NCBI GenBank assembly: GCA_018971385.1 | Contig: JAGXAY010000001.1 | Location: 34,822-98,821 of the forward strand | Length of the DNA: 64,000 nt | Reading direction: 5' to 3' | Origin: Acidobacteriota bacterium | GTDB lineage: Bacteria; Actinomycetota; Acidimicrobiia; Acidimicrobiales; RAAP-2 | Shown here: positions 20,270 to 64,000 of the stretch, piece after piece | Position numbering within the stretch: the first letter of the stretch is position 1 | Layout: every line of letters begins with the position of its first letter | Program-made: the position numbers and the translations under genes | Notes under the pieces: model-generated | The model's input: only the letters and a program-made list of their open reading frames with translations | What the model was told of the DNA's origin: nothing | Databases searched by the model: none

Positions 20270-20296
20270 TTAAGGGTAGGAAATCCTATCACTTCG

Positions 20297-45383: not shown

Positions 45384-45709
45384 TTCTGTGATCGGCGGTC
45401 GAGCTCCGCCCCGAAGAAAGCTGAGGCCGACTGCAGAATCGCGTTGGCTCGTCTCAACTCTTTGACCTCTCGGCGCAGCTTCGTGAGCTCATCACGCTCC
45501 GCGTCGGTCATGCCGGCGCGCAGGCCCATCTGGATCTCAGATCTCTTGACCCAGGTCCGAAGTGACTCGCTGCCCACCCCGAGTTCACGGGCCACTCGGC
45601 TGAACACACCGTGGTCGTTGGGGTCCTCTCGCTGAAGTTCCAGGACCATTTTCACGGCCCGCTCCTTCAGCTCATCGGGGTATCGCCTCTGCGATGAATT
45701 CTTTGTCAT
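45380..45709 (-). CDS. IS3 OrfA of element B
   Basis: RRYPDELKERAV HTH, ELRRANAILQSASAFFGAELDR; stop overlaps OrfB. Confidence 0.92.
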   Translation of the reverse strand: MTKNSSQRRYPDELKERAVKMVLELQREDPNDHGVFSRVARELGVGSESLRTWVKRSEIQMGLRAGMTDAERDELTKLRREVKELRRANAILQSASAFFGAELDRRSQK

Positions 45710-45929
45710 GCTCCATCCTCTTCCAAGAGGAGAAGTCTCTACAATTCCCAGGCCGAATCAGAGAGATCGCGGTGTCAGAGACCGTGTTGTTCCGCTGGGT
45801 CCGCGACGAGCGTCGTCGCATGGAAGCACTGGCGGGGACGAGTGATGAGCCCTTGAGCGCGAGCGAGCGCGCCGAGCTGGTGCGTCTGCGTCGTCAGGTG
45901 GCCGAGCAGGAGAAGGACAACGAGTTCTT

Positions 45930-46846: not shown

Positions 46847-47087
46847 AAACCGTGTCCACTTTTCCTGGGGAATCTCACAGGTCGACTCGGAAATCTAGAG
46901 AAATCGACAGACCTCGGCCAGCGGTGCCCCTTGGTTCAACCGTCGTTGCCCTTCAGCGAGCTATCTGATCACTTGCTCGGGTGTGGTGTCGTTGCTTCTG
47001 CATGCAGTCCTCCTCATTCCATTCTGGAACATCTGGACCCGCCCAATTAGTGGATTTATTTCAGGCGGTCAGGCCACGAATAGAGCG

Positions 47088-48239: not shown

Positions 48240-48296
48240 TTCCCATAACCTTCGAAAAAACCTTCCGATAATTCGACATCTCGGACTATGTGGACT

Positions 48297-49421
48297 TTAC
48301 GAAAGATGCGGTTGCCATGCAGAAAGAACTTCGGCAATATGTTCTTTCTCGGTAAGAGAAAGGGATTCTCTAACGGGTATCGAAAGTACAGAATTTGCGA
48401 GGATCTCGGCATTTTTACAACTAACACCGAAACCTAATTCCTTTACCACTGGATGCCCCGAAAGAGTGTACGGATAGTAAGCACGCGTTTCTACCTCATG
48501 AAGATGTGCCCAATTCTGTAGGTCATCGCGATATTTTCTATTTTCCAGTCTCAGCGTGTACTGATGGAAACAACTGATGCTCGCTCCAACTTCGAATGGT
48601 GGCAAAACAATATTTTCATTTAGGATCGAATCGTTGAAGTATTGAGCATTGCCCCTGCGCCCCATTGTTACGGTATCGATTTTTTCAAATTGCACGCGCA
48701 GTATTGCAGCTTGCAGATCCGTCATCCTTCCGTTGTATCCAACGGCCTGATGCTTATACGTTTCAATGGATCCATGACTACGAAGTAACTTCACTCGTTC
48801 GGCAATTGACGGATCGTCCGTTACGACTAGCCCCCCTTCACCGCATGCAATATTCTTACTTCCGTAGAAGGAGAACACGGATGTGCCAGTGCTGCCAATT
48901 TCGCCGATTCCTTCAACTTGTGCCCCTATTGCTTGGCACGCATCTTCAAGAACATAAATTCCATTTTCGACTGCGATTTTACGTATTTCCACCAAATCAA
49001 CAGGTCTGCCGTACAAGTGAACCGGCAATATGACCTTTGTTTTGTCAGTAATTAGTGACTTAATTTCCTCCACAGAAATATTCGATGTTTCGACATCAAT
49101 GTCTGCGAATATCGGGATTGCCCCAAGCTGAATAATGGGCTCAATGGTTCCAATGAAAGAAAATGATGTAGTAATTACCTCATCTCCAGGACCCACTCCC
49201 ATTGCCGCCAGGGCCAAAGTTATTCCCACCGTGCCATTTGAAACGGCGATGCATTGCGCCCCATCAAATCTTTTCGAAAAGGCATTCTCAACGTCAACCG
49301 TCTCTTGACCCATTGCAAGCTGACCAGTTCTCAGTACCCGAAGTACCGCCTCCTCGGTGGACTCATCGAGTGTTAATTTTGAGATTGAAATCACTGTGGG
49401 CTCCATCCACATTGTTGACAC
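48297..49421 (-). CDS. DegT/DnrJ/EryC1/StrS aminotransferase (WbpE/WlbC-like)
   Basis: SNGT, GDEVIT, PVHLYG, LEDACQAIG and PLP lysine in SFYGSKNIACGEGG. Confidence 0.93.
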   Translation of the reverse strand: MSTMWMEPTVISISKLTLDESTEEAVLRVLRTGQLAMGQETVDVENAFSKRFDGAQCIAVSNGTVGITLALAAMGVGPGDEVITTSFSFIGTIEPIIQLGAIPIFADIDVETSNISVEEIKSLITDKTKVILPVHLYGRPVDLVEIRKIAVENGIYVLEDACQAIGAQVEGIGEIGSTGTSVFSFYGSKNIACGEGGLVVTDDPSIAERVKLLRSHGSIETYKHQAVGYNGRMTDLQAAILRVQFEKIDTVTMGRRGNAQYFNDSILNENIVLPPFEVGASISCFHQYTLRLENRKYRDDLQNWAHLHEVETRAYYPYTLSGHPVVKELGFGVSCKNAEILANSVLSIPVRESLSLTEKEHIAEVLSAWQPHLS

Positions 49422-49975
49422 ATGTCAGTTGTACGTTTTCCGCAAAAACAGACCCATCCAATTTGCTTCGCGGGATTTCCCACTACCTGCGCGTGAGACG
49501 GAACCACTCGCGTCACTACACTTCCGGCTCCAACAAGAGCCCAATCCCCTACAGTGGTGCATACGATTACTGAACCAGCACCGATTGCTGCACCTTCTCC
49601 GATAGTGCAGCCGGTCGAAGTCCAGTCCGATGCGCCGAGAACCCTACCATCTTTTGCGATTGCTCGCGGATGAAGATCATTCGTCAATACGACGTGTGGG
49701 CCAATGAAGACCCCTTTGCCAACTACTGCCGGTGCGTAGATTTCTGCTCCATTTTGGATTTTCGAATTATCACCAATTCGAACATTTTCGTCAATAAAAC
49801 AACTTTTACCAATAATGGTGTTATCTCCAACTATTGCACCTTCTCGGATTTGGGTGAAGTGCCATACTTTGACACCCAATCCAAGATGCACGCCATCTTC
49901 AACGATTGCCGTAGAAGCCACAAAGCGAGATTTTGACATTTCGGGAATTGGAGCCACACTGTTTACGTCAGTCAT
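49391..49975 (-). CDS. Hexapeptide-repeat N-acyltransferase (WbpD/WlbB-like)
   Basis: VKVWHFTQI, KIQNG, GPHVVLTND..PR and GNPAKQIGWVCFCG motifs. Confidence 0.9.
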   Translation of the reverse strand: MTDVNSVAPIPEMSKSRFVASTAIVEDGVHLGLGVKVWHFTQIREGAIVGDNTIIGKSCFIDENVRIGDNSKIQNGAEIYAPAVVGKGVFIGPHVVLTNDLHPRAIAKDGRVLGASDWTSTGCTIGEGAAIGAGSVIVCTTVGDWALVGAGSVVTRVVPSHAQVVGNPAKQIGWVCFCGKRTTDMCQQCGWSPQ

Positions 49976-50969
49976 TAGGTGTAGAACTCACCTTCTGTCG
50001 GATAATTTCTGTTGCATTTTGGCATGCAGCCAAAGCCGCAAACGCTTCCTCCGTCGATATCGACGGGGTATCTTCTCCAAGGATGCAGTTGGCAAAATGC
50101 ATTAATTCTCTCCTCAAGGGTTCTCCTTGATTTACCCAGAGAGGCTTCCCCTCTGCAGTTTGCCAAATTGCTCTGAAGTTCGTCGTAGAACTATCAACAG
50201 AATCTACCTGTCCTTGATACACCGTTACTTCTTGTCGCACGTAATCGAGATCAACGAAGCCACCGGTTCCAGTCACGCTGAGCCGACGACTTTTGAGAGG
50301 GGTGATCCAATTCGTCTCAACCGCAGCCGTGACCTTTCCGTATGTCAACCAAATGAACGCATAGTCTTCATCCAAATTTCCAGGAAGCGCTCCTCCAGTT
50401 GCACCCATAACAATGGGCCGTGCCCCAGTCAGTAACTGAATGGTGTCGATATCATGAATACCTAGATCAGTGATGACGTTCGTGGCTGGGACTGCGGGTC
50501 TTGCGACACCGACTCGACGCGCAGAAATTGAAAGAATGTTTCCCAAGTTTCCACGGTCAATTATTGACCGCACAGCATCGACGGCTGGATTGAAGCGCTC
50601 AATGTGACCTACAAGAAAAATTGCGCTGCTCTTAGCTGCGGCGTCAACCAATTTTATTGCGCTATTTACGTCCGGAGCGATTGGCTTTTCGAGCAGAACA
50701 TGGACATCTCTCTCCAAGAAATCTAGTGATTGCGAAACATGGAAGGAAGTAGGGCTTGCAATAACAACTGCATCTAAATCCTCTTCAAGTAATCCGACAT
50801 GGCTGCGGTGAAGCCCAATCTCACCACCCAAACCAACAAGGTCGCCATATTCATCGATTCTTGGATCGGATACTGCCACCACCTGAAATTCTGCGAGGTC
50901 ACGCAAAACTCTTAAGTGCTGTCGGCCCATCACTCCCAAGCCGACCAATCCCACCTTGATTGGCTTCAT
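49968..50969 (-). CDS. Gfo/Idh/MocA oxidoreductase (WbpB/WlbA-like)
   Basis: VGLGVMGRQH, EKP, GHIERFNPAV, DLGIHDID and WITPLKSR motifs. Confidence 0.9.
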   Translation of the reverse strand: MKPIKVGLVGLGVMGRQHLRVLRDLAEFQVVAVSDPRIDEYGDLVGLGGEIGLHRSHVGLLEEDLDAVVIASPTSFHVSQSLDFLERDVHVLLEKPIAPDVNSAIKLVDAAAKSSAIFLVGHIERFNPAVDAVRSIIDRGNLGNILSISARRVGVARPAVPATNVITDLGIHDIDTIQLLTGARPIVMGATGGALPGNLDEDYAFIWLTYGKVTAAVETNWITPLKSRRLSVTGTGGFVDLDYVRQEVTVYQGQVDSVDSSTTNFRAIWQTAEGKPLWVNQGEPLRRELMHFANCILGEDTPSISTEEAFAALAACQNATEIIRQKVSSTPND

Positions 50970-52147
50970 TGAGAGTACCCTTCCTTAGGCGGTTGATGCA
51001 TCGTAGAAATCGACTCAACAACCTTGGTCGAATGAGAAAGCCATTTAGAAATCGCATTAGCAGTTCTTTTTGCACTACCAATTCCGCCATACGGATCTGG
51101 TGTCCATCTGACATCACCGCAGGATTCCAACGATCGAGCCACCTCATATCCCAGTCGGGTAACGTCTGGAACAAGCACGTTCGCCCTAGCTTCAATGGTT
51201 TCAACCCACTCAGTGCTCGGACGTATCGTCAAGCACGGTACCCGAAGCCAAAAAGCCTCTTTCTGAACACCACCTGAATCTGTAATGCATATTTTCGAGT
51301 CCGCTAGGTGTCGCAAAGTCTCCGCATAGGACATTGGCTCCACAAAAGTGATTCCCGTTAAATCGATATCTGAAGCCCTTAAGCGTAGGAGTGAAGATTT
51401 TGTCCGAGGATGGACAGGCCAGATAAATTCGATGCCAGTTTGTAATGCTGTAGTCGCCAGGGCAATTACGAAACGTGGAAGAAAATCTGGATCATCGACA
51501 TTCTCTGAGCGATGAATGGTGACGAATCCCTTGAGATCGCGACTCTCGAATTGAGTGCACAAAGGAGCGACTTTGGCAAACACGTCATATTGAGGGTCAC
51601 CAGTTATTTCAATATCTCCGGTCATGCCCTCGTTAGTCAAAAGATCCGAACAGTTTGGAGAAACTGGAAGGAGCAATGAACTCAAATGATCAATCAGACG
51701 ACGATTGAGCTCTTCTTGCATCCTTCGGTCGCCAGACCTACATCCTGCCTCAATGTGAATCACTGGAACGAAAGCTTTTGCGGCGGCAATTGCGGCAGCG
51801 GCAGAGGAATCTGTATCTCCGTAGACCACCACGGCACTCACGGAATCCTCCAACAGTATTTTGGAAATTGCTTGAATCATGGCACCAAACCGCAACGCTT
51901 GATGAGTCTCAGTTAGAGACAATGCATAGGTTGCGGGTGGAAGGCTCAGTTCATCGATTAGGTCGTTCATCATATTGGAGTCATAATGCTGAAAAGTATT
52001 TAACAGGAGGACTTCAATTGATTGATCCGAGGATAGATGGTGCAGAATTTCTGCCGAACGAATTACTTCCGGGCGTGTTCCAATGACATATACGACTCGC
52101 TGAATCGCCACGCCGCTACACCGTTCCTTCGTGATATCGCGAATCAT
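50966..52147 (-). CDS. Non-hydrolysing UDP-GlcNAc-type 2-epimerase (WecB/WbpI-like)
   Basis: GTRPE, QHYD, YGDTDS, HIEAGCRS and TDSGGVQKEA motifs. Confidence 0.92.
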   Translation of the reverse strand: MIRDITKERCSGVAIQRVVYVIGTRPEVIRSAEILHHLSSDQSIEVLLLNTFQHYDSNMMNDLIDELSLPPATYALSLTETHQALRFGAMIQAISKILLEDSVSAVVVYGDTDSSAAAAIAAAKAFVPVIHIEAGCRSGDRRMQEELNRRLIDHLSSLLLPVSPNCSDLLTNEGMTGDIEITGDPQYDVFAKVAPLCTQFESRDLKGFVTIHRSENVDDPDFLPRFVIALATTALQTGIEFIWPVHPRTKSSLLRLRASDIDLTGITFVEPMSYAETLRHLADSKICITDSGGVQKEAFWLRVPCLTIRPSTEWVETIEARANVLVPDVTRLGYEVARSLESCGDVRWTPDPYGGIGSAKRTANAISKWLSHSTKVVESISTMHQPPKEGYSQ

Positions 52148-54416
52148 CCATCTCTTCAGATTCCACCTTCTTCATCCTACCCCGCCTGAACATCCACCTC
52201 AGGATTGACCGTGGAAACGCAAGAACAACTATCAGAACAAGCGTGAGATAGAGCAATCTTTGAAGGTAGTTCGATGCAACATTGGTCAGGACAAGCGGAC
52301 TACCCTCAATATTCCTTATTCGAAAAATTGTCACGTTCCCGCCGCCGATTGGGCTTACACCATTTAATCTCCAATTGCTATCAAAAGGAGTGTTAAGAGT
52401 TACGTAGCGATATCCATTCCTTGGAGGCGTAACTATTACCGTGTCCGCATTTCCGATCTCATATTGTGCGCGAGAAGTTGATCCCGACCCAAGATTGCTT
52501 TGAAAATAAACCAATCGGGGATACCAAAATAGATTCTTAAATTCAACTAAGTTCTTCGAATCTTCTTGCTTCCTCAAGCATGGCGCTTCTTCAAGAAGTG
52601 CCCCCGTCGAGGACAACTGTGTACCCACAAATCCGTGTACTAAATTCATGAGATTTTCATTGGCATCTTTTTCCCACACCACATTGTCAATGTTAAATTT
52701 TGTAAGAAAATTGCAAAAGTTGACTGTCGAGGCCATCGCCTTCAGCAATGAGCTCCGAAAATACGAGCCGACAGGGGCGGAATCAATTACTGGCACGCTG
52801 GTCATCAGAGAAAGTGGTTGTATTCCTTGAAAACCTTGACGCCAATCCAGGTAAGTAACGGGGCTTTCTCCAATCGGAAGCGTTAGGACCGAGGCTCTCT
52901 GTGCACTATTGGAAACAATTTCTGCCACTGAATAATACGATTGAGGGATTGATATTCGGTTTGAAGGTAGTGAACCAGACGCGTCAAACAATTGTCCGGT
53001 CCAATATGGAAGTGGTACTACAACGACCATTAGAAATATCAAAGCGTTAAGCGTGACAATCCCTAATCGGCCTCGCAACTTCCCGAAGTCAAGGCCTTTG
53101 GACAAATAATCGATGCCAAGGCCCAACAACGGCGCCAGCATCAGTGTCAAGTATTCCATTGCTCGCTGATATGTGCTTCGAAATGGATCTAGCAGATGCA
53201 AGAACTGAAGAAAGTGTACGGTAAACGTCCCAACCGGCGGATTCGAACCGGTCGCTGCTAGAAGAAAAAATACCGAGACCAAGGTTAGGAACGGCGCGAT
53301 GTGGTTTTTCTTTTCGGATAAGTCGCCTACACGGCCAAATGCGTATCGAGCCATGCCAATGACGGCAAAACACATCGGAAGATACGCAATTGTATTGATC
53401 CAACCCGACTCCCAGGAACCCCAGGGATAGAAGTAACTGCCATCTAAATTTGCTGTTAGGCCCCAATATCCCCCGAGTCTCAAAGCTTCATCAAATGTGA
53501 CACTGTTAAGTTTGAACACTGAGAGTGATGTAGCACCGCCCAGCGACGCAATTCCGGATGCAAACGTACTTGAGTAGTAGAGGGCCTCGGGAATAAGCCA
53601 AAACAAATTAAGTACTAGCCAACCGCCGAAGATAATTCCTAGTCCCTTTAGTAATCCGAAAAGTGATGTTCGCCCCGTTCTGAATATTGCAAAACCAAGT
53701 AGGGCAACAATGATCGAATCGACTAGTACTAACGGAGTCGTAATATATGCAGGAGTCATCATTACGGTCCATCCCAGTGAGGCTAGTAACAGAGACCTGA
53801 CTCGCAATTGGGATAGGGACTTCGTAATCACTAGTAGAAGCAGCGGCAGTAGCGAGTAGTGCTGAGTCAAGAGAGACTGCGACGTCCAGATAGTCGTTAT
53901 GCAAAAAACATTGACTTGATAAAAAAGTCCCGCAGCAGTACTTCCCAAGTTTCCGATGCCTGGAAACCAATTTCGGACCAGTCCGCGCATGCTGGCACCA
54001 GAGATAAAAATCAGCGAAACGGTATATAGGCGCTGCGCAACTTCCGCCGACCATGGAAGGCCGGTGATATGCCAAAGGTACAGGAATACTCCCCACGGAA
54101 TAAGAAAACTAATCTTCCTCGCATCCGCAGGTAAATACGCTGTAGTGCCAAGATGAAAGTACCGACCAATTTCATCAAGTCTGATTGGAAATGTCCCATC
54201 AAGTCCCCAAACTAATTGAGCACCTCGCCACCAAGTGATAAGTGGAAAAAGGGCAACAACCGCAAACGCGATTGAAGGTACCCACTTTGGAGAAAGAATC
54301 AATTTTCGAACGGAGATTAGAGGAGTCCGCGCTACTTCTTTTTTTGAGCGACAATACTCGGCAATCACACATTTCCAATTCATTTTCAAGAATCTTCGTA
54401 GCAACTGGCTGACCAT
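52116..54416 (-). CDS. GT-C-like multi-pass membrane protein (AftD N-terminal/YfhO-like)
   Basis: Many TM segments, LRLGGYW, PFRS, PQSYY, a soluble C-terminal region with PFDSNW, then a final TM segment. Same layout as 40969-43965. Confidence 0.6.
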   Translation of the reverse strand: MVSQLLRRFLKMNWKCVIAEYCRSKKEVARTPLISVRKLILSPKWVPSIAFAVVALFPLITWWRGAQLVWGLDGTFPIRLDEIGRYFHLGTTAYLPADARKISFLIPWGVFLYLWHITGLPWSAEVAQRLYTVSLIFISGASMRGLVRNWFPGIGNLGSTAAGLFYQVNVFCITTIWTSQSLLTQHYSLLPLLLLVITKSLSQLRVRSLLLASLGWTVMMTPAYITTPLVLVDSIIVALLGFAIFRTGRTSLFGLLKGLGIIFGGWLVLNLFWLIPEALYYSSTFASGIASLGGATSLSVFKLNSVTFDEALRLGGYWGLTANLDGSYFYPWGSWESGWINTIAYLPMCFAVIGMARYAFGRVGDLSEKKNHIAPFLTLVSVFFLLAATGSNPPVGTFTVHFLQFLHLLDPFRSTYQRAMEYLTLMLAPLLGLGIDYLSKGLDFGKLRGRLGIVTLNALIFLMVVVVPLPYWTGQLFDASGSLPSNRISIPQSYYSVAEIVSNSAQRASVLTLPIGESPVTYLDWRQGFQGIQPLSLMTSVPVIDSAPVGSYFRSSLLKAMASTVNFCNFLTKFNIDNVVWEKDANENLMNLVHGFVGTQLSSTGALLEEAPCLRKQEDSKNLVEFKNLFWYPRLVYFQSNLGSGSTSRAQYEIGNADTVIVTPPRNGYRYVTLNTPFDSNWRLNGVSPIGGGNVTIFRIRNIEGSPLVLTNVASNYLQRLLYLTLVLIVVLAFPRSILRWMFRRGRMKKVESEEMDDSRYHEGTV

Positions 54417-55117
54417 GTGGTGGCCGTTGGCTTCGCGATGTATCGGAATGGGAGCGTTTCAATACGCATAGGTAGGAGATCAGTACTTTCTACCAAACCA
54501 AAATTCACAATCTCACCAGACTTTGCAAATGCGACGCAGTAAATCCGAATTGGTGGCTCCAAAAAAGAACTTGAGTTGGTCACCGTAATTGTGTTTCTGC
54601 CTGAATTCCCTTTGAATTCAATTGAGGGAATTTTCTTCCACGATTTTGGACTTGACCAAAATTTCACGCTGATTTTCAAGTCATTTACTGCCGAGCCGCC
54701 AATCTCCTTAGAGTCAACTACAAACACAATCTCTTGACCTGGGTACACTTGCGCGACTTTCGTATTTATCTCATGCTGATTCAATGTGGATGTGGGGAAC
54801 CCTGGCATTGAGTCAAGTCTGACTTGATTGGCAACACGTTTCAAATCATTGCGGGCTATAACTAAAAGATATCTATTGTTGCCCTGCCCATTTAATTCGG
54901 CATCACTTATGACTGTCATCGTTTGCGGGTAATTCGATGGTCGTACCGTATGCGGGTTACTCGAAAGTGATTTTGAGAAATTACTCCAGCTTGATTGGAC
55001 GAGTGCCTGAAAGGTGCTCAATGCCAGGTATGAAACGATTACTCTGACAATCAGATTGCGGCGCCATCTCCTGACACCGCTATGCACAGCCAATTGATTC
55101 ACACCGACTCTATTCAA
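54386..55117 (-). CDS. Hypothetical exported protein
   Basis: 243-aa ORF in a low-GC block, hydrophobic N-terminal segment, overlaps the next gene's start; no confident family. Confidence 0.55.
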   Translation of the reverse strand: MNRVGVNQLAVHSGVRRWRRNLIVRVIVSYLALSTFQALVQSSWSNFSKSLSSNPHTVRPSNYPQTMTVISDAELNGQGNNRYLLVIARNDLKRVANQVRLDSMPGFPTSTLNQHEINTKVAQVYPGQEIVFVVDSKEIGGSAVNDLKISVKFWSSPKSWKKIPSIEFKGNSGRNTITVTNSSSFLEPPIRIYCVAFAKSGEIVNFGLVESTDLLPMRIETLPFRYIAKPTATTWSASCYEDS

Positions 55118-55367
55118 GTTAACTCCAGGATTGAATTTTTTCGTTCTGGCTTTGGTGGAGACTATGACCTGCTCCGGGCGCTGTTGTCGGCCCAGTTGAC
55201 ATACGCTTTAGTTTCACTCTTCCGAATTAACAAAAGCGCGGGCGGGCCAAGATGTCAACCAAACCGACAACTACGCGGATTGAATGAACGGGCAATGTCG
55301 CACTCCGGTACCAACACCCTTGGTCCACAGAACTCCCGAAGGGACCGGTCTTGTCCTCACCGTGTAA

Positions 55368-58300
55368 TTAGGAATGGAATGGGCTCTGCTGCCATGACCT
55401 CGTTATTGCACCGTGTTCTATCATCAACTGGGCCACTTCGGACCAGGGGATTACGCCCGCCGAGGTATCGTCGAGCCCCTCGGCACTTGACCAATCCTCG
55501 AAGGTAGCACGCATAACTCGAGCCATGCTCTCCGGATGGGGGTCACAGAGATAGCCCCCAGCGGCGGCGACTGAGTCGCGCAACCCAGGAACGTCGTAGC
55601 CAATGGCGAGAGTTCCAAGAAGAGCCGCCTCCGTTACCACGAGACCCCAACCTTCGCGAATTGAGGTCACGAGTAAGACGTGACTTCGGCTGATCAAGTC
55701 ATTTCTCTCCGCGTCGGACACGTGACCAAAAAAGGTCACGTTCGGCGAAGCCACCTCCCTCATGCGCCGTTCCATCGAACCACTGCCAATAATCCACATT
55801 CGTGCGTCGGGGTGGTCCTCGCGAAACGCTTCAAACGCCCGGAGGGCATCGAGGGGGCGCTTGTGTTTCTCCAGACGCCCCATAAAGAGTACCGTGGGAA
55901 CCTGTTCTTTGGTGAGATTGAGTCGCCGAAGAGAAGAGGGCTTTCCGTTTGGAATGGTCACAATGTTGCTCAGTCCGTATTCGCGAAGCGACTCCTCACT
56001 CGAACGCGACACGGTGATGACAGGAGTGCTTTTGTAGCGACGCAACCACAGTGGCTCTAAGACGTGGCGCCCGATCCACGACACCGGCCAGGGCATTTCC
56101 AGCGACCACAGTTCCCGACACACCTGGTGAGCGAGTCCCACCACGTGAGCATCCTCCACCCACTTGACAGCATTAAAGGGTCGGGTATTGATTTCGTCGA
56201 CCACCACGTCGAACTGTCCGCGTCCCTCGCTCCGATAAAACTGGCGCGCCGCACGGTATACCCCGTATCTAGATCCGCGACGCACAATCGCGACCCCGTT
56301 GACGTCCTCTCGCGCCAACTCACCCACTACCGCCGCGCAAAATATGGTCACCGAGTGTCCCATCTTAACTAGTTCCTCCGCCACGGCCTGCGTGTACACC
56401 TCGGCACCTCCAGCACCCGGGTGCGCGAGGTCCCGCCAATTCAAGATCAAGATTCGCAGCGGGCGAAAGTGGGGGTCGCGACGGTGCAACAACTCCCCGT
56501 GAGGCACCTCCACGAAGGCTCTCGTTACCGTCCGATCATTGTGTGATTTCAACTTACGGTCGTAGTACTTGAGAACTCGTAGTCGGTAGAAAATGGCGAA
56601 AGTATCGAGAAGCATCTCCGTGGCACTTCGACGCGACACCGTACTCGTCAAACGCTCGCGAATCGTGACGGGTAGTTCCAGGAACCGGTCGTATCCCAAC
56701 TTCTGGCACACGACAAACAGTTCGAGATCGAAGGCGAATTTCTTCTCCACCATTCGCGGAAGAGCCGCCTCCAGAGCTTCCCGGCGAATAATTTTGATGC
56801 CAGTCTGAGTGTCGCGCACCGGCAGCTGAAAGAGTAAGCGGACGAGAGATTGATATCCGTGGGAATAGGCACGCCGCAAGGGAGGGTACACAACCTTCGA
56901 GTGGGGGTGAAGTTTGCTGCCGTAGACGATGTCGGGATTGGCGTCACGAATGGCCGCCGCGAAGTGGGTCAAAAGTTCTGCCGGGAGGTCCCCGTCTGCG
57001 TCAATGAAACCGAGGTAGCGCCCGTGCCCCTCCGTCAACCCCGTCCGCAAGGCGGAGCCTTTCCCTTGATTCACCGGGAGGGTAATGACGCGAACGTGCG
57101 GTAGGCCGCTCTCCTCAAGTGCCTCGCCACTGCCGTCCGTGCTTCCGTCCGACACCGCCAGAATCTCGTACGTCACGCCGAGTACGTTCAACACGTCAAC
57201 GCACTGCGCCACGTGCACCTGGAGAGTGGCCCCCGGGTTATAGAAAGGCACGACGAGAGTGAGATCCACCTCAGCTTCAGGCAGGACGACCATGTCCAGG
57301 AGCTCCCCACGTCCTCGCGAAACCGCCGTGGTGAGACCAGTGAACGTCGAGGGCGTCATGATGAGGATGACCGCGACCGACGCCATGACCATCACCGTGG
57401 CGAGGCGCAGTGGGGTCATGGTCATTGTTTCGGTCGCGACAAAGACTCCGATGGCTGCCACCCACGGAGCCAGCGCCGTTCGTGAGCCCCGTGAGATCTG
57501 AAGAGTCACCATCAACTGCGCAACGGCGAGTACCATTGCCTGTACCACGAGGAGTCGCACTACATTCGCGGCCCCCGAGTAGGTCGAACCGAAGAGAAGA
57601 CTCAACAACGGCTCGGCGAGCAGCATGATTGGTGCCCCGATGGCGAGCGAGGCCACCGCCAACTTTTTTAGACCACTCGTAAAATCCAGTCGTACTTGAT
57701 TGGAGGACAGAGAGAATCGCGTGAGGTGGGGGTGCAACAAAAACGTAAGCGACACCGGAACAACGAACGCCACGTCGGCCAGAATGGCAGCTACTGAATA
57801 TCGTCCCGCTGATCCCCCACTGAGAACGTGTCGCGCCACCAGCGTGTCCACCGACAACAGGGCACCGGTTCCGAAGAGGAGGAGAACGCGCGAACCCAAT
57901 TGGCGACTTTGGTTATCGCTCCCGAGGAGCAACTCGAGCGGCGCGGGAGACGGCCGGTTAGTCCGGCGCCAGAGTGAGATCAGGGTAATGCACTGTCCCG
58001 CGACGACGGCGACGAGCGCCCCCACCGCACCCCATCCGAGTCCCATGGCCATCACCCCCACTAGAAGGCGAACAAATCCATTGCCCCAGAAGTGCGCATT
58101 TGCAATGCCGCGATAGAACCCTTGCGTCAATCGAGCCCCCTCGACGAGTGCCCCGAGCGTGGCGAGAGGGAACCACACGGCGAGGAGGACCACAATGCTG
58201 TAGTGAGACAGTCTCCAGTATGGCAACACTGCCCTACTAGCGATGAGCGCCAGGCCCACCACCACGCTCCCCGCGAGCATTCGATGGCCCATCGACGACC

Positions 58301-58550
58301 GCAGCACTTCGCGAGGACCTAGAGTCGAACGCGAAGACCAAACTTGAATTGCCCCCAACGGTGCGAGTGCCAAATTGAGGACAGCGAGGGCCATCGCGAG
58401 TTTGCCGAACTCAACGGGACCGAGAACTCGAGCCCCCAGAGCGAGGAACATACCGTTCAAGAACATCACGCCGAGCGACGACGCCACCATCAGGATCACG
58501 TTGCGTCCGACCACGCCGGAGTTACTCCGTGACCACAACACGCGGGACAT
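55368..58550 (-). CDS. Triple fusion: Wzx-like flippase + GT2 polyprenyl-phosphate-sugar synthase + GT4
   Basis: Flippase about 58550-57320. GT2 about 57270-56560 (VVPFYN, SDGSTD, GKGSAL, FIDADGD, DTQTGIK). GT4 about 56460-55400 (ILNWRD..HPGAGGAE, EGWGLVVTEA). One continuous frame; the track starts at 58634. Confidence 0.85.
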   Translation of the reverse strand: MSRVLWSRSNSGVVGRNVILMVASSLGVMFLNGMFLALGARVLGPVEFGKLAMALAVLNLALAPLGAIQVWSSRSTLGPREVLRSSMGHRMLAGSVVVGLALIASRAVLPYWRLSHYSIVVLLAVWFPLATLGALVEGARLTQGFYRGIANAHFWGNGFVRLLVGVMAMGLGWGAVGALVAVVAGQCITLISLWRRTNRPSPAPLELLLGSDNQSRQLGSRVLLLFGTGALLSVDTLVARHVLSGGSAGRYSVAAILADVAFVVPVSLTFLLHPHLTRFSLSSNQVRLDFTSGLKKLAVASLAIGAPIMLLAEPLLSLLFGSTYSGAANVVRLLVVQAMVLAVAQLMVTLQISRGSRTALAPWVAAIGVFVATETMTMTPLRLATVMVMASVAVILIMTPSTFTGLTTAVSRGRGELLDMVVLPEAEVDLTLVVPFYNPGATLQVHVAQCVDVLNVLGVTYEILAVSDGSTDGSGEALEESGLPHVRVITLPVNQGKGSALRTGLTEGHGRYLGFIDADGDLPAELLTHFAAAIRDANPDIVYGSKLHPHSKVVYPPLRRAYSHGYQSLVRLLFQLPVRDTQTGIKIIRREALEAALPRMVEKKFAFDLELFVVCQKLGYDRFLELPVTIRERLTSTVSRRSATEMLLDTFAIFYRLRVLKYYDRKLKSHNDRTVTRAFVEVPHGELLHRRDPHFRPLRILILNWRDLAHPGAGGAEVYTQAVAEELVKMGHSVTIFCAAVVGELAREDVNGVAIVRRGSRYGVYRAARQFYRSEGRGQFDVVVDEINTRPFNAVKWVEDAHVVGLAHQVCRELWSLEMPWPVSWIGRHVLEPLWLRRYKSTPVITVSRSSEESLREYGLSNIVTIPNGKPSSLRRLNLTKEQVPTVLFMGRLEKHKRPLDALRAFEAFREDHPDARMWIIGSGSMERRMREVASPNVTFFGHVSDAERNDLISRSHVLLVTSIREGWGLVVTEAALLGTLAIGYDVPGLRDSVAAAGGYLCDPHPESMARVMRATFEDWSSAEGLDDTSAGVIPWSEVAQLMIEHGAITRSWQQSPFHS

Positions 58551-58847
58551 ATAGGACGAAGCGAGGGCGAGGGGATTCTGCATCGGATACGACCTAGGAC
58601 CTTCTACCTGACTTAAGCACGGCCCCGTAGCCACTTTCTCTCACAACGTTCTTAGGAACTGCTGTCCGAATGCTCCCCACTCTTTCCACAGAACATCTCA
58701 TTGTTTAAGCAAGAGCGATTGCGTTACTCTCCAATTCTACGAGAGACAACGCGAAAAGTCCTGGCCCGCGTCTTGCGATTCGGTGAAATCTATGTCTGCT
58801 ATTGGCCAAAAATGGTGTTATTCCACAGTGGATGCGGATACGCCGGG

Positions 58848-60146
58848 CTACGGGACGGGAGTCGTTTCGAGAAGTCGTCGAGAAGTCCTCATCGCGACAC
58901 CAAGCGACACCCCAACCACCACGACGGCACCGGTAGTGACGAACAACATCAGCCAAGCCAGTCCAGTAAATGACACCGGGTGAAGAGCTGCGACGACAAC
59001 CGCGACTCCTATTCCCACCAGAGGAACAAGAGCGGAGATGTGTCGGCGTGCCAGTTGAATAAAAACGAGAAAACTGAGAATACTCAGGCCCACCGACTGC
59101 ACAACCAAGACCCTCAAAATGGTTGCCGCTTGGGAAAATCGGCTGCCGAAAAGGAAGCCAGTGACGACCGTGGGAAGCGCCGAGAACGCGGCGGCCACGA
59201 TGAGGCCGAGCCCTAACGCAAACAGCAATCCTCGAATAATTAGTCGACGGCTGGCGTCACTGATGACTTTTTCTCCTACTAGGTGGGGGAAAGAAACCGT
59301 GACCAGCGCCACAGGCAGGAACAGGGCGATGTGCGCCGCAATGGCCGATGCGGCGTATTGACCAGCGTTAAACGAGGTGAAGTAGTGGCGGGCCAGGAAA
59401 GTGTCCACCGCCGTAAACCCAGTAAATCCGGCAAACGCGAAGATCGACATTGAAATATGGCGAAATCCCACTCGAAGGTGGTCTTGATGAGAGGCCGAAC
59501 GCAGTGAGTGACGAGCCTGGTAAATCAAGTAGCCAACCGAAAAAACTTGGGCCACCAAGAGTGAGGCCATGGCACCAGTTACCCCCCAGCCCACGGCAAT
59601 TAAGAGAACCCCCAACGCGAGGCGCAGAAGTCCACCCCCTACCAAAGTTCCGATCGCGACTGGGTAGTACTTAAATTCTCCAATCAGGAGTCCCTGTAAG
59701 AAGGTGGTGAGGAGAGCGAAGGGGATCCACACCGTCACCATGATCATGGGAAATGGTGAAGTCAGGTGAAGGTACGCATCGATGCGCCCAAGGAAGGTGA
59801 GAATCACGAGAGAGAGACTCGTACCCACCAGCGCAGTCCGACGAAGAAGGCGCACGACAGTTAATCCCTCATCACGCACATTCTCGAGCACCGCTTGAGT
59901 GACGGCGAACTGCAGGGCCCCGAAGGGCAGAGCGATGAGATTCGCCATATTGGTGAGAGTCGAAAGACTCCCGTAGTCCCGCGGTCCCAGTAGTCGACTA
60001 CCCGCCATGTGAAAAAGGAAGCTCGATGCGTTGACGAGAGTCGAACTTACAAGGAAAAAGGTGGCGCCGCGTCCGAACGACTCCGCATTTAATCGCCGAA
60101 GAACTGCACCCACGATGTCTCGAAGACGACTCACTTCACACCCCAA
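58848..60146 (-). CDS. Wzx/MATE-like oligosaccharide flippase
   Basis: GSRLLGPRDYGSL, DTFLARHYF and AGQYAASA motifs; about 12 TM segments. Confidence 0.85.
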   Translation of the reverse strand: MGCEVSRLRDIVGAVLRRLNAESFGRGATFFLVSSTLVNASSFLFHMAGSRLLGPRDYGSLSTLTNMANLIALPFGALQFAVTQAVLENVRDEGLTVVRLLRRTALVGTSLSLVILTFLGRIDAYLHLTSPFPMIMVTVWIPFALLTTFLQGLLIGEFKYYPVAIGTLVGGGLLRLALGVLLIAVGWGVTGAMASLLVAQVFSVGYLIYQARHSLRSASHQDHLRVGFRHISMSIFAFAGFTGFTAVDTFLARHYFTSFNAGQYAASAIAAHIALFLPVALVTVSFPHLVGEKVISDASRRLIIRGLLFALGLGLIVAAAFSALPTVVTGFLFGSRFSQAATILRVLVVQSVGLSILSFLVFIQLARRHISALVPLVGIGVAVVVAALHPVSFTGLAWLMLFVTTGAVVVVGVSLGVAMRTSRRLLETTPVP

Positions 60147-60375: not shown

Positions 60376-61455
60376 TTAACGACTCAACACCTGCGTCACA
60401 AATGCCCGAAACTCTTCCTGTGGATGAAGTTGCCGACTGTGCTGGATGGTCTCGGCGCTGGCCCGGCGCTTTTCTTCGTAGAGACGGTCATCGAGAAACG
60501 CTCGGTCAATCTGAGCTGCGAAATCAGAGATGTCAAATGGCCGAGCGAGATACATGAACTCCCGGCGATCGGCAAAACACGGTAAGTCAAAGGCCACGGT
60601 GGGAACGCCTCGTGACGCTCCTTCCAGTGGTACGTAGGAAGGTCCCTCGTAGCGAGACGGGAGAAGGAGCGCGCGGGCGCTCTTCAAGAGGTCATCTTTC
60701 GGGGTTCCCCGGACGTAACCAAGAACTTCGACGGACGATGAGAGTGGCCAACGTCGAACAAGCTTCTGCCAATCCTTGTTCGACGGATCGAATCCCGCCA
60801 GCGCTACGTCGGGGGCTCGTGAGCCCAGCCGGTGCAGAGAACGGACTAGTAAGTCGAGGCCTTTTTGGTGGATATCAGGGCGCCCCAGAAAGACCGCTCG
60901 CTCCCCTGGAGAATCGTTCCACACCGCTATACCTGGTTCCACCACCTGACCAAAAGCCGCCGTCACGGTCTGAGGGCTGAGGGTCCGAATTCGTTGGGAC
61001 ACACTCTCGTGAGTGGTAGCAATCCAGTCATATTTCTGTAATCGGTGCCGAGTCAAGAGGTGAAAGGGAACGTGATATTTCGCCGACATCTCATCCCAGA
61101 AAGAGAAATTGGCGAGACCTATAACGGGTGTTGTCGTGTGGGTGGGCATACCGGAGGGACCAATCGGGGGAATGAAGTTCTCCACGATGAGGTCAAAGTG
61201 CTCCCCCTCTCGTCGAACCACATCCAATTGGCGTCGGGCGAAGGAGAGTTGGGTCGACTTGGTCACCTGGTCGGTGCGAAGAAGTGCTCTGTACGTGACG
61301 GCACCACGAGTCCGATGCGTCTCCGACATCACCGTCCATACTTCAACGTCATGTACATCACTCAGGGGCTCAATAAACTCTTCCGTAAACCGAGCCTGCC
61401 CCCCGGGGTGACCCGAGAAATGCGTGTCGGAGTCGAAGCAAAGAATCCTCGCCAT
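60376..61455 (-). CDS. Glycosyltransferase family 4
   Basis: GHPGGQ, FLGRPDIHQKGLD and PSRYEGPSYVPLEG motifs. Confidence 0.88.
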   Translation of the reverse strand: MARILCFDSDTHFSGHPGGQARFTEEFIEPLSDVHDVEVWTVMSETHRTRGAVTYRALLRTDQVTKSTQLSFARRQLDVVRREGEHFDLIVENFIPPIGPSGMPTHTTTPVIGLANFSFWDEMSAKYHVPFHLLTRHRLQKYDWIATTHESVSQRIRTLSPQTVTAAFGQVVEPGIAVWNDSPGERAVFLGRPDIHQKGLDLLVRSLHRLGSRAPDVALAGFDPSNKDWQKLVRRWPLSSSVEVLGYVRGTPKDDLLKSARALLLPSRYEGPSYVPLEGASRGVPTVAFDLPCFADRREFMYLARPFDISDFAAQIDRAFLDDRLYEEKRRASAETIQHSRQLHPQEEFRAFVTQVLSR

Positions 61456-61480: not shown

Positions 61481-64000
61481 TCACTTCGAAATGAGATCTG
61501 CGGTGGGGACGACGCGAACGCTACTCACCGACAACGCGGCGAGTCCAGCCTGAGCTGGAAACATGGAAATTCGGAGATGAGCAGGTGCCGACACCTCCGC
61601 CGAACGCTTCGCTCCGAGGTTGTCCACGAACATCGACAGGGGAATCCACAGATGCTCGGGCCCCGAAGGATTTACCCCAATTTCGTACTGGAGATATCCT
61701 CCCTGCGGAGACACCAACTCCACGCTCACCACCACGCCCTGATACTGAGCGTTCACCGTGAGATCGACTCCGGCGAGTCGATTAAGGGGCCCGAAAGTCG
61801 CGGGGTCGCTCACACCGAGTGACGATCGGGGAGATCCGTCGAAGTGACCAACCAGACGCAGAGAGGTTCCCGACGCCGTCACGCTCGTGGCACTCGCTGT
61901 CGCAGAATGACTTCGACCGAGTGGAGCGGACGAGAAGACGAGAGCGGGGATGTGGCGAACGTCGGGAAAGGGAACGGCAACGAGTTCTCCGGTAAGCCCC
62001 TGGGAAAGATTGACGCGCAAGAGGGGCTTTGCGACCGCCACCGACTCGCTCGCGAGGCTGGAGGGCGCTACGAAGTGATTGACATAGACCCCGTACTGAT
62101 AACCAAGAGCGCTGAGATCGTTTAAGGGAACCTGCGGGCTCCAAAAACCCACAGAAATGCCTGGTCGGGCGTACTGGGCCATGATGGGGTCGACGTAGGT
62201 TCCCGCCACCCGACTACCCGTCGGCACGTGGTGATTCACGTAGGCCATGAGTGCGGGAATGGGTTCAGACCCCGTTCCGTAGGGAAGGTCAATCGAAGGA
62301 TAGAGGGTCCGTGCAGCCCACGCCAAGGGTGACTGGGACAGAGAGAGTTCACCGCCCACGAGTGGCGAGAACATGAACAGGAACTCCGCGGCCATCACGC
62401 CCCCTAGGGCCGCCCAGAGCGACCGGCGCCGAGGGCGAAAATAGAAGTACCGCAGCGTCCATCCCGCCACTAACAAGACCAGGGGGACCATGGGGAGGAG
62501 TTGGTAACTCCAACTCGTAGGAGCACTGATGATGAGTTCGGTTAGGCCAACGAGTGGAAGGGCCGACACGAAAAGAATGTCTCGGGGGGCCCGGCGCATA
62601 AAGAGGGGGAAGGCGAGAGGACTCACCACCATCACCAACCACGCCGCGAGCATGGCGAGAGGGAAACTCGCCACGAGCGACAGCGGATACCTCCACCAAT
62701 CGATGACCAAACCCGAGCTGCTGTACTTCGCGAAGAGGAAACTAAAGACACCGTGATATTGGGAAGGAGTTCGGTAGCCGGACCACACGACAAAGGGGGT
62801 AACGACCGAACTCGCAATCAGTACGGCCGCCCGACGGCGATGGCCGGATCGCACCAGGTGAATGAGGGCCACCAACCCGATCAGAAAGAACACGACACCG
62901 TAGGAAAACTTGGTGAGGAGACTCGCCGCGAGCGTAGCGCCGAGGTAGAGAGTCCGCCGAGTGGTGATGGAGTCTTTAAGTCTCAGATACGCGTCGAGAG
63001 CCAAGACGAGTTCCAGCGTGAGCAGAGGTTCGATAAAGGCCGATGCTCCGGTGACAATGGCCAAGGGGAACAGGGCAAATGCGGCGGCGGCGAAGACTGC
63101 CGTACCCTCCGAGAGCCATCGACGGCCCACCCTCCAGATCATGACGTTGGTGACGAGAGAGAACACCACGCTCATCAGGCGCGCGGAAGTGAGGGCACTG
63201 ACCCCCAACCCCTTACCCGCAAAGATGGCCACGCCAAAGAACCACATGGCGAGGGGGGGATTGGCAAAGTACGGCGATTGGGGTGGATACACGTGTTGTT
63301 GGAACTGAAAGATGTACGAGAAGAGATGAGAGGAAAACCACTGACCCGTCCACGCAACGTAGTTAATCTCGTCGTCTCGCCACGGCAGATGGAGAGCCTC
63401 GTAGATTCGCAGAACCACTCCGAGAAGCACTGCCGCCCACAGCACTCCCGTCAGCCCCAGGTTGTAGCGATGTTGGCGAACCTCCACCTCACGACCACTC
63501 GAGGGATCCGACTTCAGATCAACCCGTCCGGCGGCGAGTTCGGGATGCGCCCGCAACCAGGCCGGACGCTCTGGAGGAGACGTCATCACGGTGAGTAGCT
63601 TCTCGGCGACGTTGCCCCAGGACCACGAAGTGGACGCCACCGCCGCGTTGCGCGACAAGCGACGCCACTCGTCGGGTGAAGTGAGGAGGGAAACAGCGGC
63701 GTCGGCGAGGGCGGCAGGACGCTCCTCGGTAAGTAGTCCCGTCTCGCCGTGACGCACCGAGTCCTGGAGGCCCGGCACGTCGTACCCGATGGTGGGGACT
63801 CCCCGGGCTCCCGCTTCGTTAACGACCAACCCCCATCCTTCTCGAACACTGGTCATCAGCAGTAAATCGGCCCGCGAGAGGATATCCACCTTGAACTCTT
63901 CGCTCACGTGGCCCCAGACGCGGACGTTCTCCGAAGCGAGCGCCCGCGCTTCCTCCAACAGATAACCTCCGCCGAGGACGTCGAGCGAGGCTTCAGGAAT
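61481..64000 (-). CDS. Fusion of GT4 (C-terminal half visible) and an ArnT/PMT-like GT-C with a C-terminal soluble domain; 5' partial
   Basis: Frame is open to the window end (IPEASLDVLGGGYLLEE...). TSVREGWGLVVNEA, then WRDDEINY, NPPL, SARLMS, FIEP and LTKFS, about 11 TM segments and a beta-rich tail. Confidence 0.82.
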   Translation of the reverse strand: MPEASLDVLGGGYLLEEARALASENVRVWGHVSEEFKVDILSRADLLLMTSVREGWGLVVNEAGARGVPTIGYDVPGLQDSVRHGETGLLTEERPAALADAAVSLLTSPDEWRRLSRNAAVASTSWSWGNVAEKLLTVMTSPPERPAWLRAHPELAAGRVDLKSDPSSGREVEVRQHRYNLGLTGVLWAAVLLGVVLRIYEALHLPWRDDEINYVAWTGQWFSSHLFSYIFQFQQHVYPPQSPYFANPPLAMWFFGVAIFAGKGLGVSALTSARLMSVVFSLVTNVMIWRVGRRWLSEGTAVFAAAAFALFPLAIVTGASAFIEPLLTLELVLALDAYLRLKDSITTRRTLYLGATLAASLLTKFSYGVVFFLIGLVALIHLVRSGHRRRAAVLIASSVVTPFVVWSGYRTPSQYHGVFSFLFAKYSSSGLVIDWWRYPLSLVASFPLAMLAAWLVMVVSPLAFPLFMRRAPRDILFVSALPLVGLTELIISAPTSWSYQLLPMVPLVLLVAGWTLRYFYFRPRRRSLWAALGGVMAAEFLFMFSPLVGGELSLSQSPLAWAARTLYPSIDLPYGTGSEPIPALMAYVNHHVPTGSRVAGTYVDPIMAQYARPGISVGFWSPQVPLNDLSALGYQYGVYVNHFVAPSSLASESVAVAKPLLRVNLSQGLTGELVAVPFPDVRHIPALVFSSAPLGRSHSATASATSVTASGTSLRLVGHFDGSPRSSLGVSDPATFGPLNRLAGVDLTVNAQYQGVVVSVELVSPQGGYLQYEIGVNPSGPEHLWIPLSMFVDNLGAKRSAEVSAPAHLRISMFPAQAGLAALSVSSVRVVPTADLISK

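Follow-up and report, generated by a model that had tools for sequence, protein, structure and literature searches.

The window analysed here is a 64,000-nucleotide stretch of contig JAGXAY010000001.1 (assembly GCA_018971385.1, positions 34,822 to 98,821) from an uncultured actinobacterium of acid mine drainage. A single gene on its minus strand joins three parts that are separate genes elsewhere: a membrane domain of the MOP family, of the Wzx type found in polysaccharide flippases, a glycosyltransferase of family GT2 and a glycosyltransferase of family GT4. A membrane protein whose model has the GT-C fold is encoded downstream. The gene and its parts are listed below, with residue numbers counted from GTG 58634, as they are throughout.

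55368..58583, minus strand: fusion gene MOP-GT2-GT4, 1071 aa from ATG 58583; the frame is open up to GTG 58634.
57345..58502, minus strand: N-terminal MOP/PST (Wzx-type) membrane domain, residues ~45-430; assigned from a sub-threshold PF13440 match, hydropathy, the structural model and invariant residues.
57288..57323, minus strand: linker 1, MOP to GT2, residues 438-449; pLDDT (predicted local distance difference test) below 50; one 835-bp unitig crosses it in three runs.
56565..57272, minus strand: GT2 domain, polyprenyl-phosphate glycosyltransferase type, residues ~455-690; assigned from sequence matches in the PDB, Foldseek and key residues.
56472..56558, minus strand: linker 2, GT2 to GT4, residues 693-721; pLDDT below 50; crossed by unitigs and contigs without indel.
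55410..56465, minus strand: GT4 domain, retaining, GT-B fold, residues ~724-1075; assigned from Pfam, Foldseek and invariant residues.

The minus strand from 55368 to 58634 is one uninterrupted open reading frame (ORF) of 1088 aa when read from the first GTG, according to the ORF listing. Gene callers on public contigs use ATG 58583 (1071 aa), which is the likely start. Pfam gives matches for all three domains in the product: Polysacc_synt_3 (PF13440) over residues 68-355 with E 3.4e-4 and 20.4 bits, slightly short of its gathering score of 23, Glycos_transf_2 at 460-622 (E 1.4e-21), and the two halves of the GT4, both above cutoff, Glyco_transf_4 (PF13439) at 742-897 (E 1.5e-15, 58.1 bits) and Glycos_transf_1 (PF00534) at 906-1052 (E 2.5e-25, 89.4 bits). 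An AlphaFold model built on an alignment of 23 homologues (mean pLDDT 79) displays a two-lobed 12-helix part followed by a GT-A and a GT-B domain, connected by two flexible linkers of low confidence. Since no hydrophobic segment occurs after residue 427, the GT2 and GT4 domains should be cytoplasmic. A sequence-only reading of this DNA had described three domains in one frame, a membrane part of about 12 transmembrane (TM) helices, DAD and DTQTGIK motifs in the GT2 and junctions near 57300 and 56500. The single ORF and the Pfam matches bear out the first of these, the motifs were found at D545-A-D547 and D608-K614 and are conserved in the 23 homologues, and the linkers lie close to where the junctions had been placed. 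Strict hydropathy gives 10 membrane segments and the model 12 helices of membrane length, arranged as two 6-helix lobes, in keeping with the count.

The fusion is a real gene and not an assembly artefact. The same protein, with the same neighbours, recurs on 13 contigs that were assembled independently from different samples, and the sequence occurs in mine-drainage and wastewater metagenomes. Logan contigs from three DNA runs, each of a different study, tile positions 55000-59000 at a word depth of ~25-390x, free of mismatches, indels and joints. At the junctions the support consists of assembled unitigs and not of raw reads: linker 1 lies inside a single unitig, 57015-57849, in all three runs, and linker 2 inside unitig 56376-56705 in two runs and within a 9.9-kb contig in the third. 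The concern raised with the sequence-only reading, that the junctions might be artefacts, is thus answered by the contigs and the tiling. Furthermore, the continuous triple architecture is maintained in homologues down to 33% identity, and metatranscriptome contigs from a strain 95-99% identical in this gene cover parts of it. Relative to a related strain the fusion gene carries 11 synonymous and 10 non-synonymous single-nucleotide differences, too few for a comparison between domains. Within 56676-57044 and 57820-58623 the Logan unitigs of each DNA run are fragmented, chiefly over the MOP and GT2 parts, which suggests strain-level variants in the populations. A scan for promoters and terminators returned nothing above chance.

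We examined the GT2 domain for features that distinguish enzymes acting on polyprenyl phosphate. Its closest sequence matches in the PDB are GtrB (2e-11) and PfDPMS (1e-10, residues 457-671), followed by ArnC, and Foldseek returns ArnC and GtrB with a target TM-score of ~0.6. Weak NCBIfam matches to AglJ and to a haloarchaeal dolichol-phosphate (Dol-P) hexose transferase fall far below the curated cutoffs. Key residues were mapped using the roles reported for PfDPMS (PMC5526996) and for GtrB, where R122 and R200 bind the lipid phosphate (PMC4728340). The DXD motif D545-A-D547 aligns to D89-A-D91 of PfDPMS and is nearly invariant in the family. The D608-T-Q-T-G-x-K614 motif is invariant or nearly so across the 23 homologues; its D608, the invariant Asp of the D-x-x-[ST]-G motif, probably occupies the position of the catalytic D157 of GtrB, whose alignment ends before it. 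Among the PfDPMS residues that bind the lipid phosphate, R131 and S135 correspond to R587 and S591, both invariant in the family, and R117 (R122 in GtrB) to K574, which is likewise invariant but is Lys instead of Arg. The model shows two interface helices, at 585-602 and 668-687, whose amphipathicity was judged from sequence only; the PfDPMS alignment spans both. Together, the likeness to GtrB, DPMS and ArnC, the two matching phosphate-binding residues (R587 and S591) and the interface helices argue that this GT2 is a polyprenyl-phosphate glycosyltransferase, so that the loading of a lipid carrier postulated by the sequence-only reading is well supported. Unlike GtrB, ArnC and PfDPMS, the domain has no C-terminal TM helices of its own. 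The N-terminal MOP domain stands in for the missing anchor, and the GT2 is in this respect of the partner type, as in DPM1/DPM3 and WpsA/WpsB, and not of the GtrB type. No phosphoglycosyltransferase appears in the annotated stretches (~31-47 kb, 47-64 kb and ~10 kb past the end of the window), and apart from this GT2 they show no enzyme that would load a lipid, which agrees with a monophosphate-linked pathway.

The GT4 domain carries the signature of a retaining GT-B enzyme. The glutamates of its EX7E motif, E994 and E1002, are invariant in the 23 homologues, as are G742, G743, R920 and K925. Foldseek matches it to MshA, PimA, BshA and the glycogen synthase GlgA with target TM-scores up to 0.73 (0.72-0.73 for MshA and PimA). 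We infer that this domain would extend the product of the GT2 by adding a second sugar to the polyprenyl-phosphate-linked sugar.

The membrane domain was assigned at the level of its family. Polysacc_synt_3 matches 21 of 23 family members at E <= 1e-3 (best E 2.6e-18), and two of the longer homologues, P0022 and P0077, pass the PF13440 threshold. In the model a disordered loop at 225-240 separates the two lobes, and four charged residues that are invariant in the family, R189, D263, R268 and H269, are all kept in the window's copy. A Foldseek search with the whole fusion model gave a list filled by GT4 and GT2 matches, which left no place in it for structural matches to the MOP fold. A second MOP gene adjoins the fusion on its upstream side.

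58848..60146, minus strand: free-standing MOP paralogue, 432 aa (MOP432), 29% identical to the fused MOP domain.

MOP432 shares 35-43% identity with fused MOP domains from other species, against which the window's own fused domain reaches only 26-30%. In a neighbour-joining tree the fused copies of the window and of its closest orthologue (locus L007) are sister to the free copies of the same two organisms. By these comparisons the window's fused domain is a fast-evolving copy that arose from a lineage-specific duplication; its substrate may have changed, or it may by now serve mainly as an anchor. Because the fused domain is a divergent duplicate with a free paralogue next to it, a flippase role for it in this organism is less certain. 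The flipping step proposed by the sequence-only reading is therefore supported for the family and is left in some doubt for the window's own copy.

We asked how often the three parts occur together and in what form. Arrangements were counted, with a check for intervening stop codons, in the best 80 loci from GTDB species genomes. In 20 loci MOP, GT2 and GT4 are fused in one frame, and four of these run on into a GT-C module. Eight loci encode a MOP-GT2 fusion followed by a separate GT4, which in one (L074) is itself fused to a GT-C. All three parts are separate and adjacent in four loci (Thermococcaceae, Chloroflexi, Chloroflexota and Ca. Hakubella), GT2 and GT4 are separate and adjacent in ten (Bathyarchaeota, Methanococcoides, Gammaproteobacteria and Vulcanimicrobiota), and a separate MOP gene stands next to a GT2-GT4 fusion in one, from Patescibacteria. 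A MOP-GT2 fusion alone was found in 19 loci, the cultured Ferrimicrobium acidiphilum among them. The separated state can be seen directly in the ORF listings of loci L038, L048 and L088. The order MOP, GT2, GT4, GT-C is constant, and every neighbouring pair occurs both fused and unfused.

Two groups of apparent fusions did not withstand inspection of their ORFs and the stop-codon check, by which all loci were reclassified. Archaeal GT2-GT4 'fusions', which had appeared as joined tblastn matches over residues ~455-1022, are adjacent separate genes in L038 and L048, and the 'fusion' of Ca. Hakubella is likewise three separate genes.

An exhaustive HMMER pass over 1.84 billion representatives gave a similar picture. 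About 20 clusters (at 50% identity) cover the full MOP-GT2-GT4 span, about half of them with a GT-C module as well; MOP-GT2 clusters are many more, and true GT2-GT4 fusions are few. The metagenome-assembled genomes (MAGs) behind the 20 in-frame triple fusions all bear actinobacterial labels, at the rank of Actinomycetota or below, and most are labelled Acidimicrobiaceae or Acidimicrobiales, from peat, soil and mine water. The triple architecture is thus rare and mostly confined to Acidimicrobiia. The earlier statement that its parts are normally separate genes holds: unfused MOP, GT2 and GT4 genes stand in the same order in Thermococcaceae, Chloroflexota/Chloroflexi and Ca. Hakubella, as do GT2 and GT4 in Bathyarchaeota. 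The sequence-only reading also knew of no characterised example and would have lost its point if the architecture were common and characterised. We find it recurrent (about 20 clusters, 20 species genomes) yet rare. The JGI names for relatives of the fusion are combined generic COG names only, and our search of the open-access literature, in which absence is no proof, found no description of a flippase-glycosyltransferase fusion and no characterised member.

A regular companion of these loci is a membrane protein that the sequence-only reading had missed.

52116..54416, minus strand: AftD/STT3-like GT-C membrane protein, 766 aa, downstream of the fusion; assigned by AlphaFold and Foldseek and by profile links to the long fusions.

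Sequence and profile searches gave this protein no match in Pfam (E <= 0.01), NCBIfam or the PDB, and Pfam GT-C_AftD (PF11847) does not match it. Its AlphaFold model (pLDDT 74.8; predicted TM-score, pTM, 0.75) is closest in Foldseek to AftD (2e-10, query TM-score 0.47), followed by yeast and human STT3 (8e-7), AftA (1e-4), AglB and PglB. These matches identify the modelled protein as a GT-C, with a membrane fold and an outer soluble domain. Enzymes of this class transfer sugars from polyprenyl-phosphate-linked donors outside the membrane, and the predicted role of the protein is that of a transferase on the outer side, with the flipped lipid-linked donor as its substrate. D73, in the WGxDG of the first outer loop, is the candidate for the catalytic Asp; it is kept in at least 90% of members and aligns to the G-G-D of the fused subfamily, in a loop that is poorly modelled.

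Relatives of the fusion supply the link between this protein and the other three domains. Some homologues are 1468-2347 aa long and carry an additional C-terminal module homologous to the 766-aa protein, giving four-part MOP-GT2-GT4-GT-C fusions in at least 10 protein clusters. P0022 matches the 766-aa protein directly (BLASTP E 5e-7; hmmsearch E 1e-24), the C-terminal modules of six other long fusions align to the GT-C family in hhalign (probability 98.8%, E 1e-16), and ten further long-fusion clusters match that family at E 1e-66 to 1e-115. The C-terminal module of P0077 in turn passes Pfam GT-C_AftD (38.4 bits, cutoff 26). Through these profile links the 766-aa protein is a distant relative of AftD, and we do not call it an AftD member.

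The same association appears where the genes are separate. Within 8 kb, in the fetched flanks of the 80 loci, a GT-C of the 766-aa family was found near 25 of 31 MOP-GT2-GT4 loci (fused or adjacent), near 3/19 loci with MOP-GT2 only, 3/12 with GT2-GT4 only and 1/10 in which the matched GT4 has no GT2 next to it. Of the six MOP-GT2-GT4 loci lacking it, five sit on a contig shorter than 5 kb or have the gene reaching the contig end, leaving L042 (Ca. Hakubella) as the sole one with adequate flanks and no such gene. In L007 a GT-C of the other subfamily occupies the same slot, so the slot is conserved and its occupant is swapped. The load-extend-flip unit proposed by the sequence-only reading is incomplete by itself, being tied in the window to a GT-C encoded by the adjacent gene; in other species this component is fused. 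Two other combinations were noticed among the relatives: P0074 (L023, 3846-7079, 1065 aa) is a GT2 fused to a GT-C of the 766-aa family and lies directly after a MOP-GT2-GT4 gene, and P0051 (1190 aa) is a GT2 fused to a YfhO-family domain.

The fusion gene and its GT-C partner are surrounded by further glycosylation genes, as follows.

47088-48239, minus strand: GT4 of a low-GC cassette.
48297-49421, minus strand: DegT aminotransferase, same cassette.
49391-49975, minus strand: hexapeptide acetyltransferase, intact, same cassette.
49968-50969, minus strand: GFO enzyme resembling uridine diphosphate (UDP)-GlcNAc 3-dehydrogenase, same cassette.
50966-52147, minus strand: WecB-like 2-epimerase, same cassette.
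54386..55117, minus strand: orf243, one N-terminal TM helix and an outer domain of ~200 aa, no family match; between the fusion and the GT-C.
60376..61455, minus strand: separate GT4, 359 aa, identified by Pfam; a 64% orthologue adjoins the L007 fusion.
61481..63958, minus strand: GT4 fused to a PMT_2 GT-C, 1052 aa on public contigs; its 5' part passes the end of the window.

The stretch 47000-55100, which holds the GT4, the four sugar genes, the GT-C and orf243, has a GC content of 0.44-0.49 and a GC content at third codon positions (GC3) of 0.42-0.46. The rest of the window lies at GC 0.55-0.68 and the fusion gene has GC3 0.69, producing a sharp compositional break at the cassette. The cassette abuts insertion sequence (IS) elements with rve-type transposase genes at 44460-46846, and one ENA contig has a phage-integrase-type gene in their place. 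It looks like a horizontally swapped, serotype-like unit. Its genes at 47088-52147 resemble a UDP-2,3-diacetamido-2,3-dideoxy-sugar pathway, with NCBIfam scores that are all below the curated cutoffs, and the cassette is likely to be the source of a 2,3-diacetamido sugar; homologues of its sugar genes follow the fusion syntenically in L023. The orf243 gene overlaps the start of the GT-C gene by 31 bases, was found only on identical contigs and may stand outside the glycosylation system. On the other side, a GT87 GT-C gene (822 aa) follows the GT4-PMT_2 gene just past the window end. Beyond the IS elements, where the public MAG contigs stop, a 998-aa ORF without Pfam or NCBIfam match (40969-43965, plus strand) precedes respiratory genes for succinate dehydrogenase/fumarate reductase and cytochrome c oxidase. 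The only RNA genes found in the window are adjacent tRNA-Glu(CTC) and tRNA-Gln(CTG) at 20194-20368 on the minus strand.

A GT2 of the polyprenyl-phosphate-sugar synthase type, a Wzx-type domain and a GT-C are thus encoded together in the window. We suggest, with a probability of roughly 0.6, that the fusion protein works as an assembly line anchored in the membrane, that its product is a lipid-linked sugar donor, and that it represents the known three- and four-component systems of extracytoplasmic glycosylation in fused form. In such a system the GT2, held at the cytoplasmic face by a 12-residue tether to the last MOP helix, would use a nucleotide sugar to glycosylate polyprenyl monophosphate, a step supported at the level of the family. 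The GT4 would then attach a second sugar to the lipid-linked one, and the MOP domain would carry the polyprenyl-phosphate-linked glycan to the outer face, again with family-level support; in this lineage MOP432 may share or take over the flipping. The 766-aa GT-C, whose fold and linkage are described above, is predicted to pass the glycan to an outer acceptor, a wall polymer or a protein. Because the CAZy families are inverting for GT2, retaining for GT4 and inverting for GT-C, the predicted product is an alpha-linked sugar bearing an alpha-linked second sugar. The neighbouring low-GC cassette would probably supply a 2,3-diacetamido sugar.

Several observations weigh against this assignment. 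The acceptor of the GT4 is not readable from its sequence. In the GT2, Lys574 replaces an Arg that is universally conserved in lipid-phosphate glycosyltransferases (R122 of GtrB), and residue 575, where at least 90% of the family have Arg, is a Leu in the window. The window's MOP domain scores 20.4 bits with PF13440, below the cutoff of 23, a profile of the MOP domains found no solved structure in the PDB by sequence, and between the window and L007 (protein P0002) the fused MOP domains share 46% identity and the free ones 62%. The geometry between domains in the fusion model is unreliable (pTM 0.48). Moreover, the cassette that holds the GT-C gene is foreign in composition, and the pairing of this particular fusion with this GT-C is therefore recent.

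The strongest competing explanation is a two-arm lipoglycan pathway resembling that of mycobacterial phosphatidylinositol mannosides, lipomannan and lipoarabinomannan. In this scheme the GT2 would supply a polyprenyl-phosphate monosaccharide to the GT-Cs of the cluster (GT87, PMT_2 and AftD-like). The PimA-like GT4 would have another lipid as its acceptor, which could be a phospholipid or glycolipid anchor or some further intermediate on a carrier, and the product of the GT4 would later be lengthened outside the cell; the fusion would merely join the cytoplasmic arms. The gene content is compatible with it, as the cluster has three GT-C genes (GT87, GT4-PMT_2 and the 766-aa AftD-like one), four GT4s and one polyprenyl-phosphate GT2, and the PimE-type enzymes, which use polyprenyl-phosphate mannose, belong to GT87. 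The GT4 fold resembles PimA, PimB' and MshA, but with PimA and MshA being the GT4 structures studied most, the match is unspecific. MOP-GT2 without GT4 is the commonest form, so the GT2 product is useful alone. Against this, GT2 and GT4 are neighbours or fused, in the same order, across archaea and several bacterial phyla, which fits sequential action on one lipid better, and the four-part fusions appear self-sufficient. We consider two separate arms unlikely, while taking them more seriously than any other alternative to the assembly line.

Somewhat more doubtful is the view that in this organism the fused MOP domain mainly holds or activates the TM-less GT2, in the manner of WpsB/GacJ, DPM3 or the D1 part of Ppm1, with MOP432 or another protein doing the flipping. 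WpsA and GacI indeed require a membrane partner at the N-terminus: WpsA has no membrane helix of its own and is active with its partner fused there, and natural GacJ-GacI fusions exist (PMC10821137). The rapid divergence of the fused duplicate, the greater similarity of the free copy to the fused MOP domains of other species and the sub-threshold Pfam score all agree with such a role, as does a tiny sample of strain-level codon changes in the MOP part, of which 6/10 are non-synonymous. On the other hand, the fused copy retains the invariant R189, D263, R268 and H269, a 400-residue domain of 12 helices would be a costly anchor, and most species with the fusion have no second MOP gene in the fetched flanks.

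Two further explanations fare much worse. GT2 and GT4 might together form a bifunctional polymerase that builds an alternating polysaccharide on the carrier for export by the MOP domain; the two domains do lie side by side, and two-domain glycosyltransferase polymerases exist in other pathways. The GT2, however, belongs by its interface helices and phosphate-binding residues with the enzymes that load polyprenyl phosphate, at a distance from processive synthases; what MOP transporters carry are short lipid-linked units, and the tight GT-C linkage points to transfer from a lipid donor. We regard a polymerase as highly improbable. An assembly or frameshift error, or a decaying pseudogene, could be entertained for a gene known from metagenome assemblies with strain-related unitig breaks inside it, but is practically eliminated by the identical protein on 13 contigs, the indel-free junctions in three studies at ~25-390x, the architecture and invariant catalytic motifs kept to 33% identity and the metatranscriptome contigs on parts of the gene.

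Returning to the assembly line, a further step in its interpretation is possible and is offered tentatively, since we think it rather less likely to be true than false. The protein could be a self-contained machine for synthesis and export, in which the MOP transporter is coupled to the synthase of its own substrate and the product is handed directly to the flippase and, in the four-part relatives, to the GT-C. If so, those relatives would hold a whole glycosylation pathway in one polypeptide, the fusion would serve as a natural 'Rosetta stone', arguing for the flipping of polyprenyl-monophosphate sugars by MOP proteins, and a single purifiable protein would be available for the study of coupled synthesis and flipping.

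To our knowledge, surface decoration by way of polyprenyl-phosphate sugars has been described only for pathways made up of separate proteins, and the flippases for Dol-P-Man and Dol-P-Glc are still unidentified; what the MOP-like Rft1 does is under debate. The flippase step is the least proven in such pathways, being assigned from gene context and not by assay (PMC11127046). A MOP domain fused to the synthase, and in relatives to the GT-C as well, provides independent genomic evidence for a shared lipid intermediate, and one protein for structural and reconstitution work on synthesis, flipping and transfer. Our data also point to an unstudied surface-glycan system in Acidimicrobiia of acid mine drainage, peat and soil, whose GT-C and sugar cassette appear swappable in the manner of a serotype locus.

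The closest parallel among known systems is the Wps pathway of Lactococcus, which makes pellicle polysaccharide on undecaprenyl monophosphate. There WpsA/B make GlcNAc-P-C55, WpsC-F extend it in the cytoplasm, the Wzx-type WpsG flips the product and the GT-C WpsJ transfers it (PMC10821137). In our reading both systems combine a DPMS-like TM-less GT2, extending glycosyltransferases, a Wzx-type flippase and a GT-C. All Wps parts are separate, whereas in the window the flippase-type domain is itself the N-terminal partner of the GT2 and one putative extending glycosyltransferase is fused behind it; in addition, the window's GT-C resembles AftD, and its system yielded no polymerisation components. 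The CAZy family of WpsC was not found in that source (PMC10821137), and hence we cite no direct GT4 precedent for the extension of a polyprenyl-phosphate sugar. In Streptococcus pyogenes, the four-component Gac pathway for a GlcNAc side chain uses GacI/J to make GlcNAc-P-undecaprenol, the Wzx-type GacK to flip it and the GT-C GacL to transfer it (PMC10821137). It shares with the window a GtrB-type GT2, a MOP flippase for a polyprenyl-monophosphate sugar and a GT-C, but what it transfers is a single sugar, a GT4 step is absent, and its flippase and synthase are separate proteins.

The Agl pathway of Haloferax volcanii also builds an oligosaccharide on a monophosphate carrier, with AglJ/G/I/E acting on dolichol monophosphate and the Wzx-like AglR and Agl15 as flippase candidates (PMC3871713). 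A DPMS-like GT2 begins the chain and GT-C enzymes (AglB/AglS) transfer it. The differences are the archaeal setting, the separate genes and the target, an Asn of an S-layer glycoprotein. Synthase, flippase and GT-C likewise act together in the GtrA/GtrB/Gtr* and ArnC/ArnEF/ArnT systems and in the Citrobacter system of a MATE flippase and GT136, and the window's GT2 is homologous to GtrB and ArnC (PMC11127046, PMC4728340). These systems differ in that their flippases are the small GtrA or SMR proteins, or MATE, their synthases have C-terminal TM helices of their own and their components are unfused. Within actinobacteria, mycobacterial Ppm1 offers a precedent for a TM-less polyprenyl-phosphate-sugar synthase fused behind a membrane domain, one that is not a MOP transporter. 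Among the mycobacterial PimA/PimB'/PimE and AftD enzymes, PimA matches the window's GT4 in fold and AftD its GT-C, but AftD uses decaprenyl-phosphate arabinose made by a non-GT2 route, and the window's GT-C is half its size and falls below the Pfam AftD model. Together these comparisons indicate that the chemistry and the logic of the system are already known, and that what is new is their recurrent packaging in fused form.

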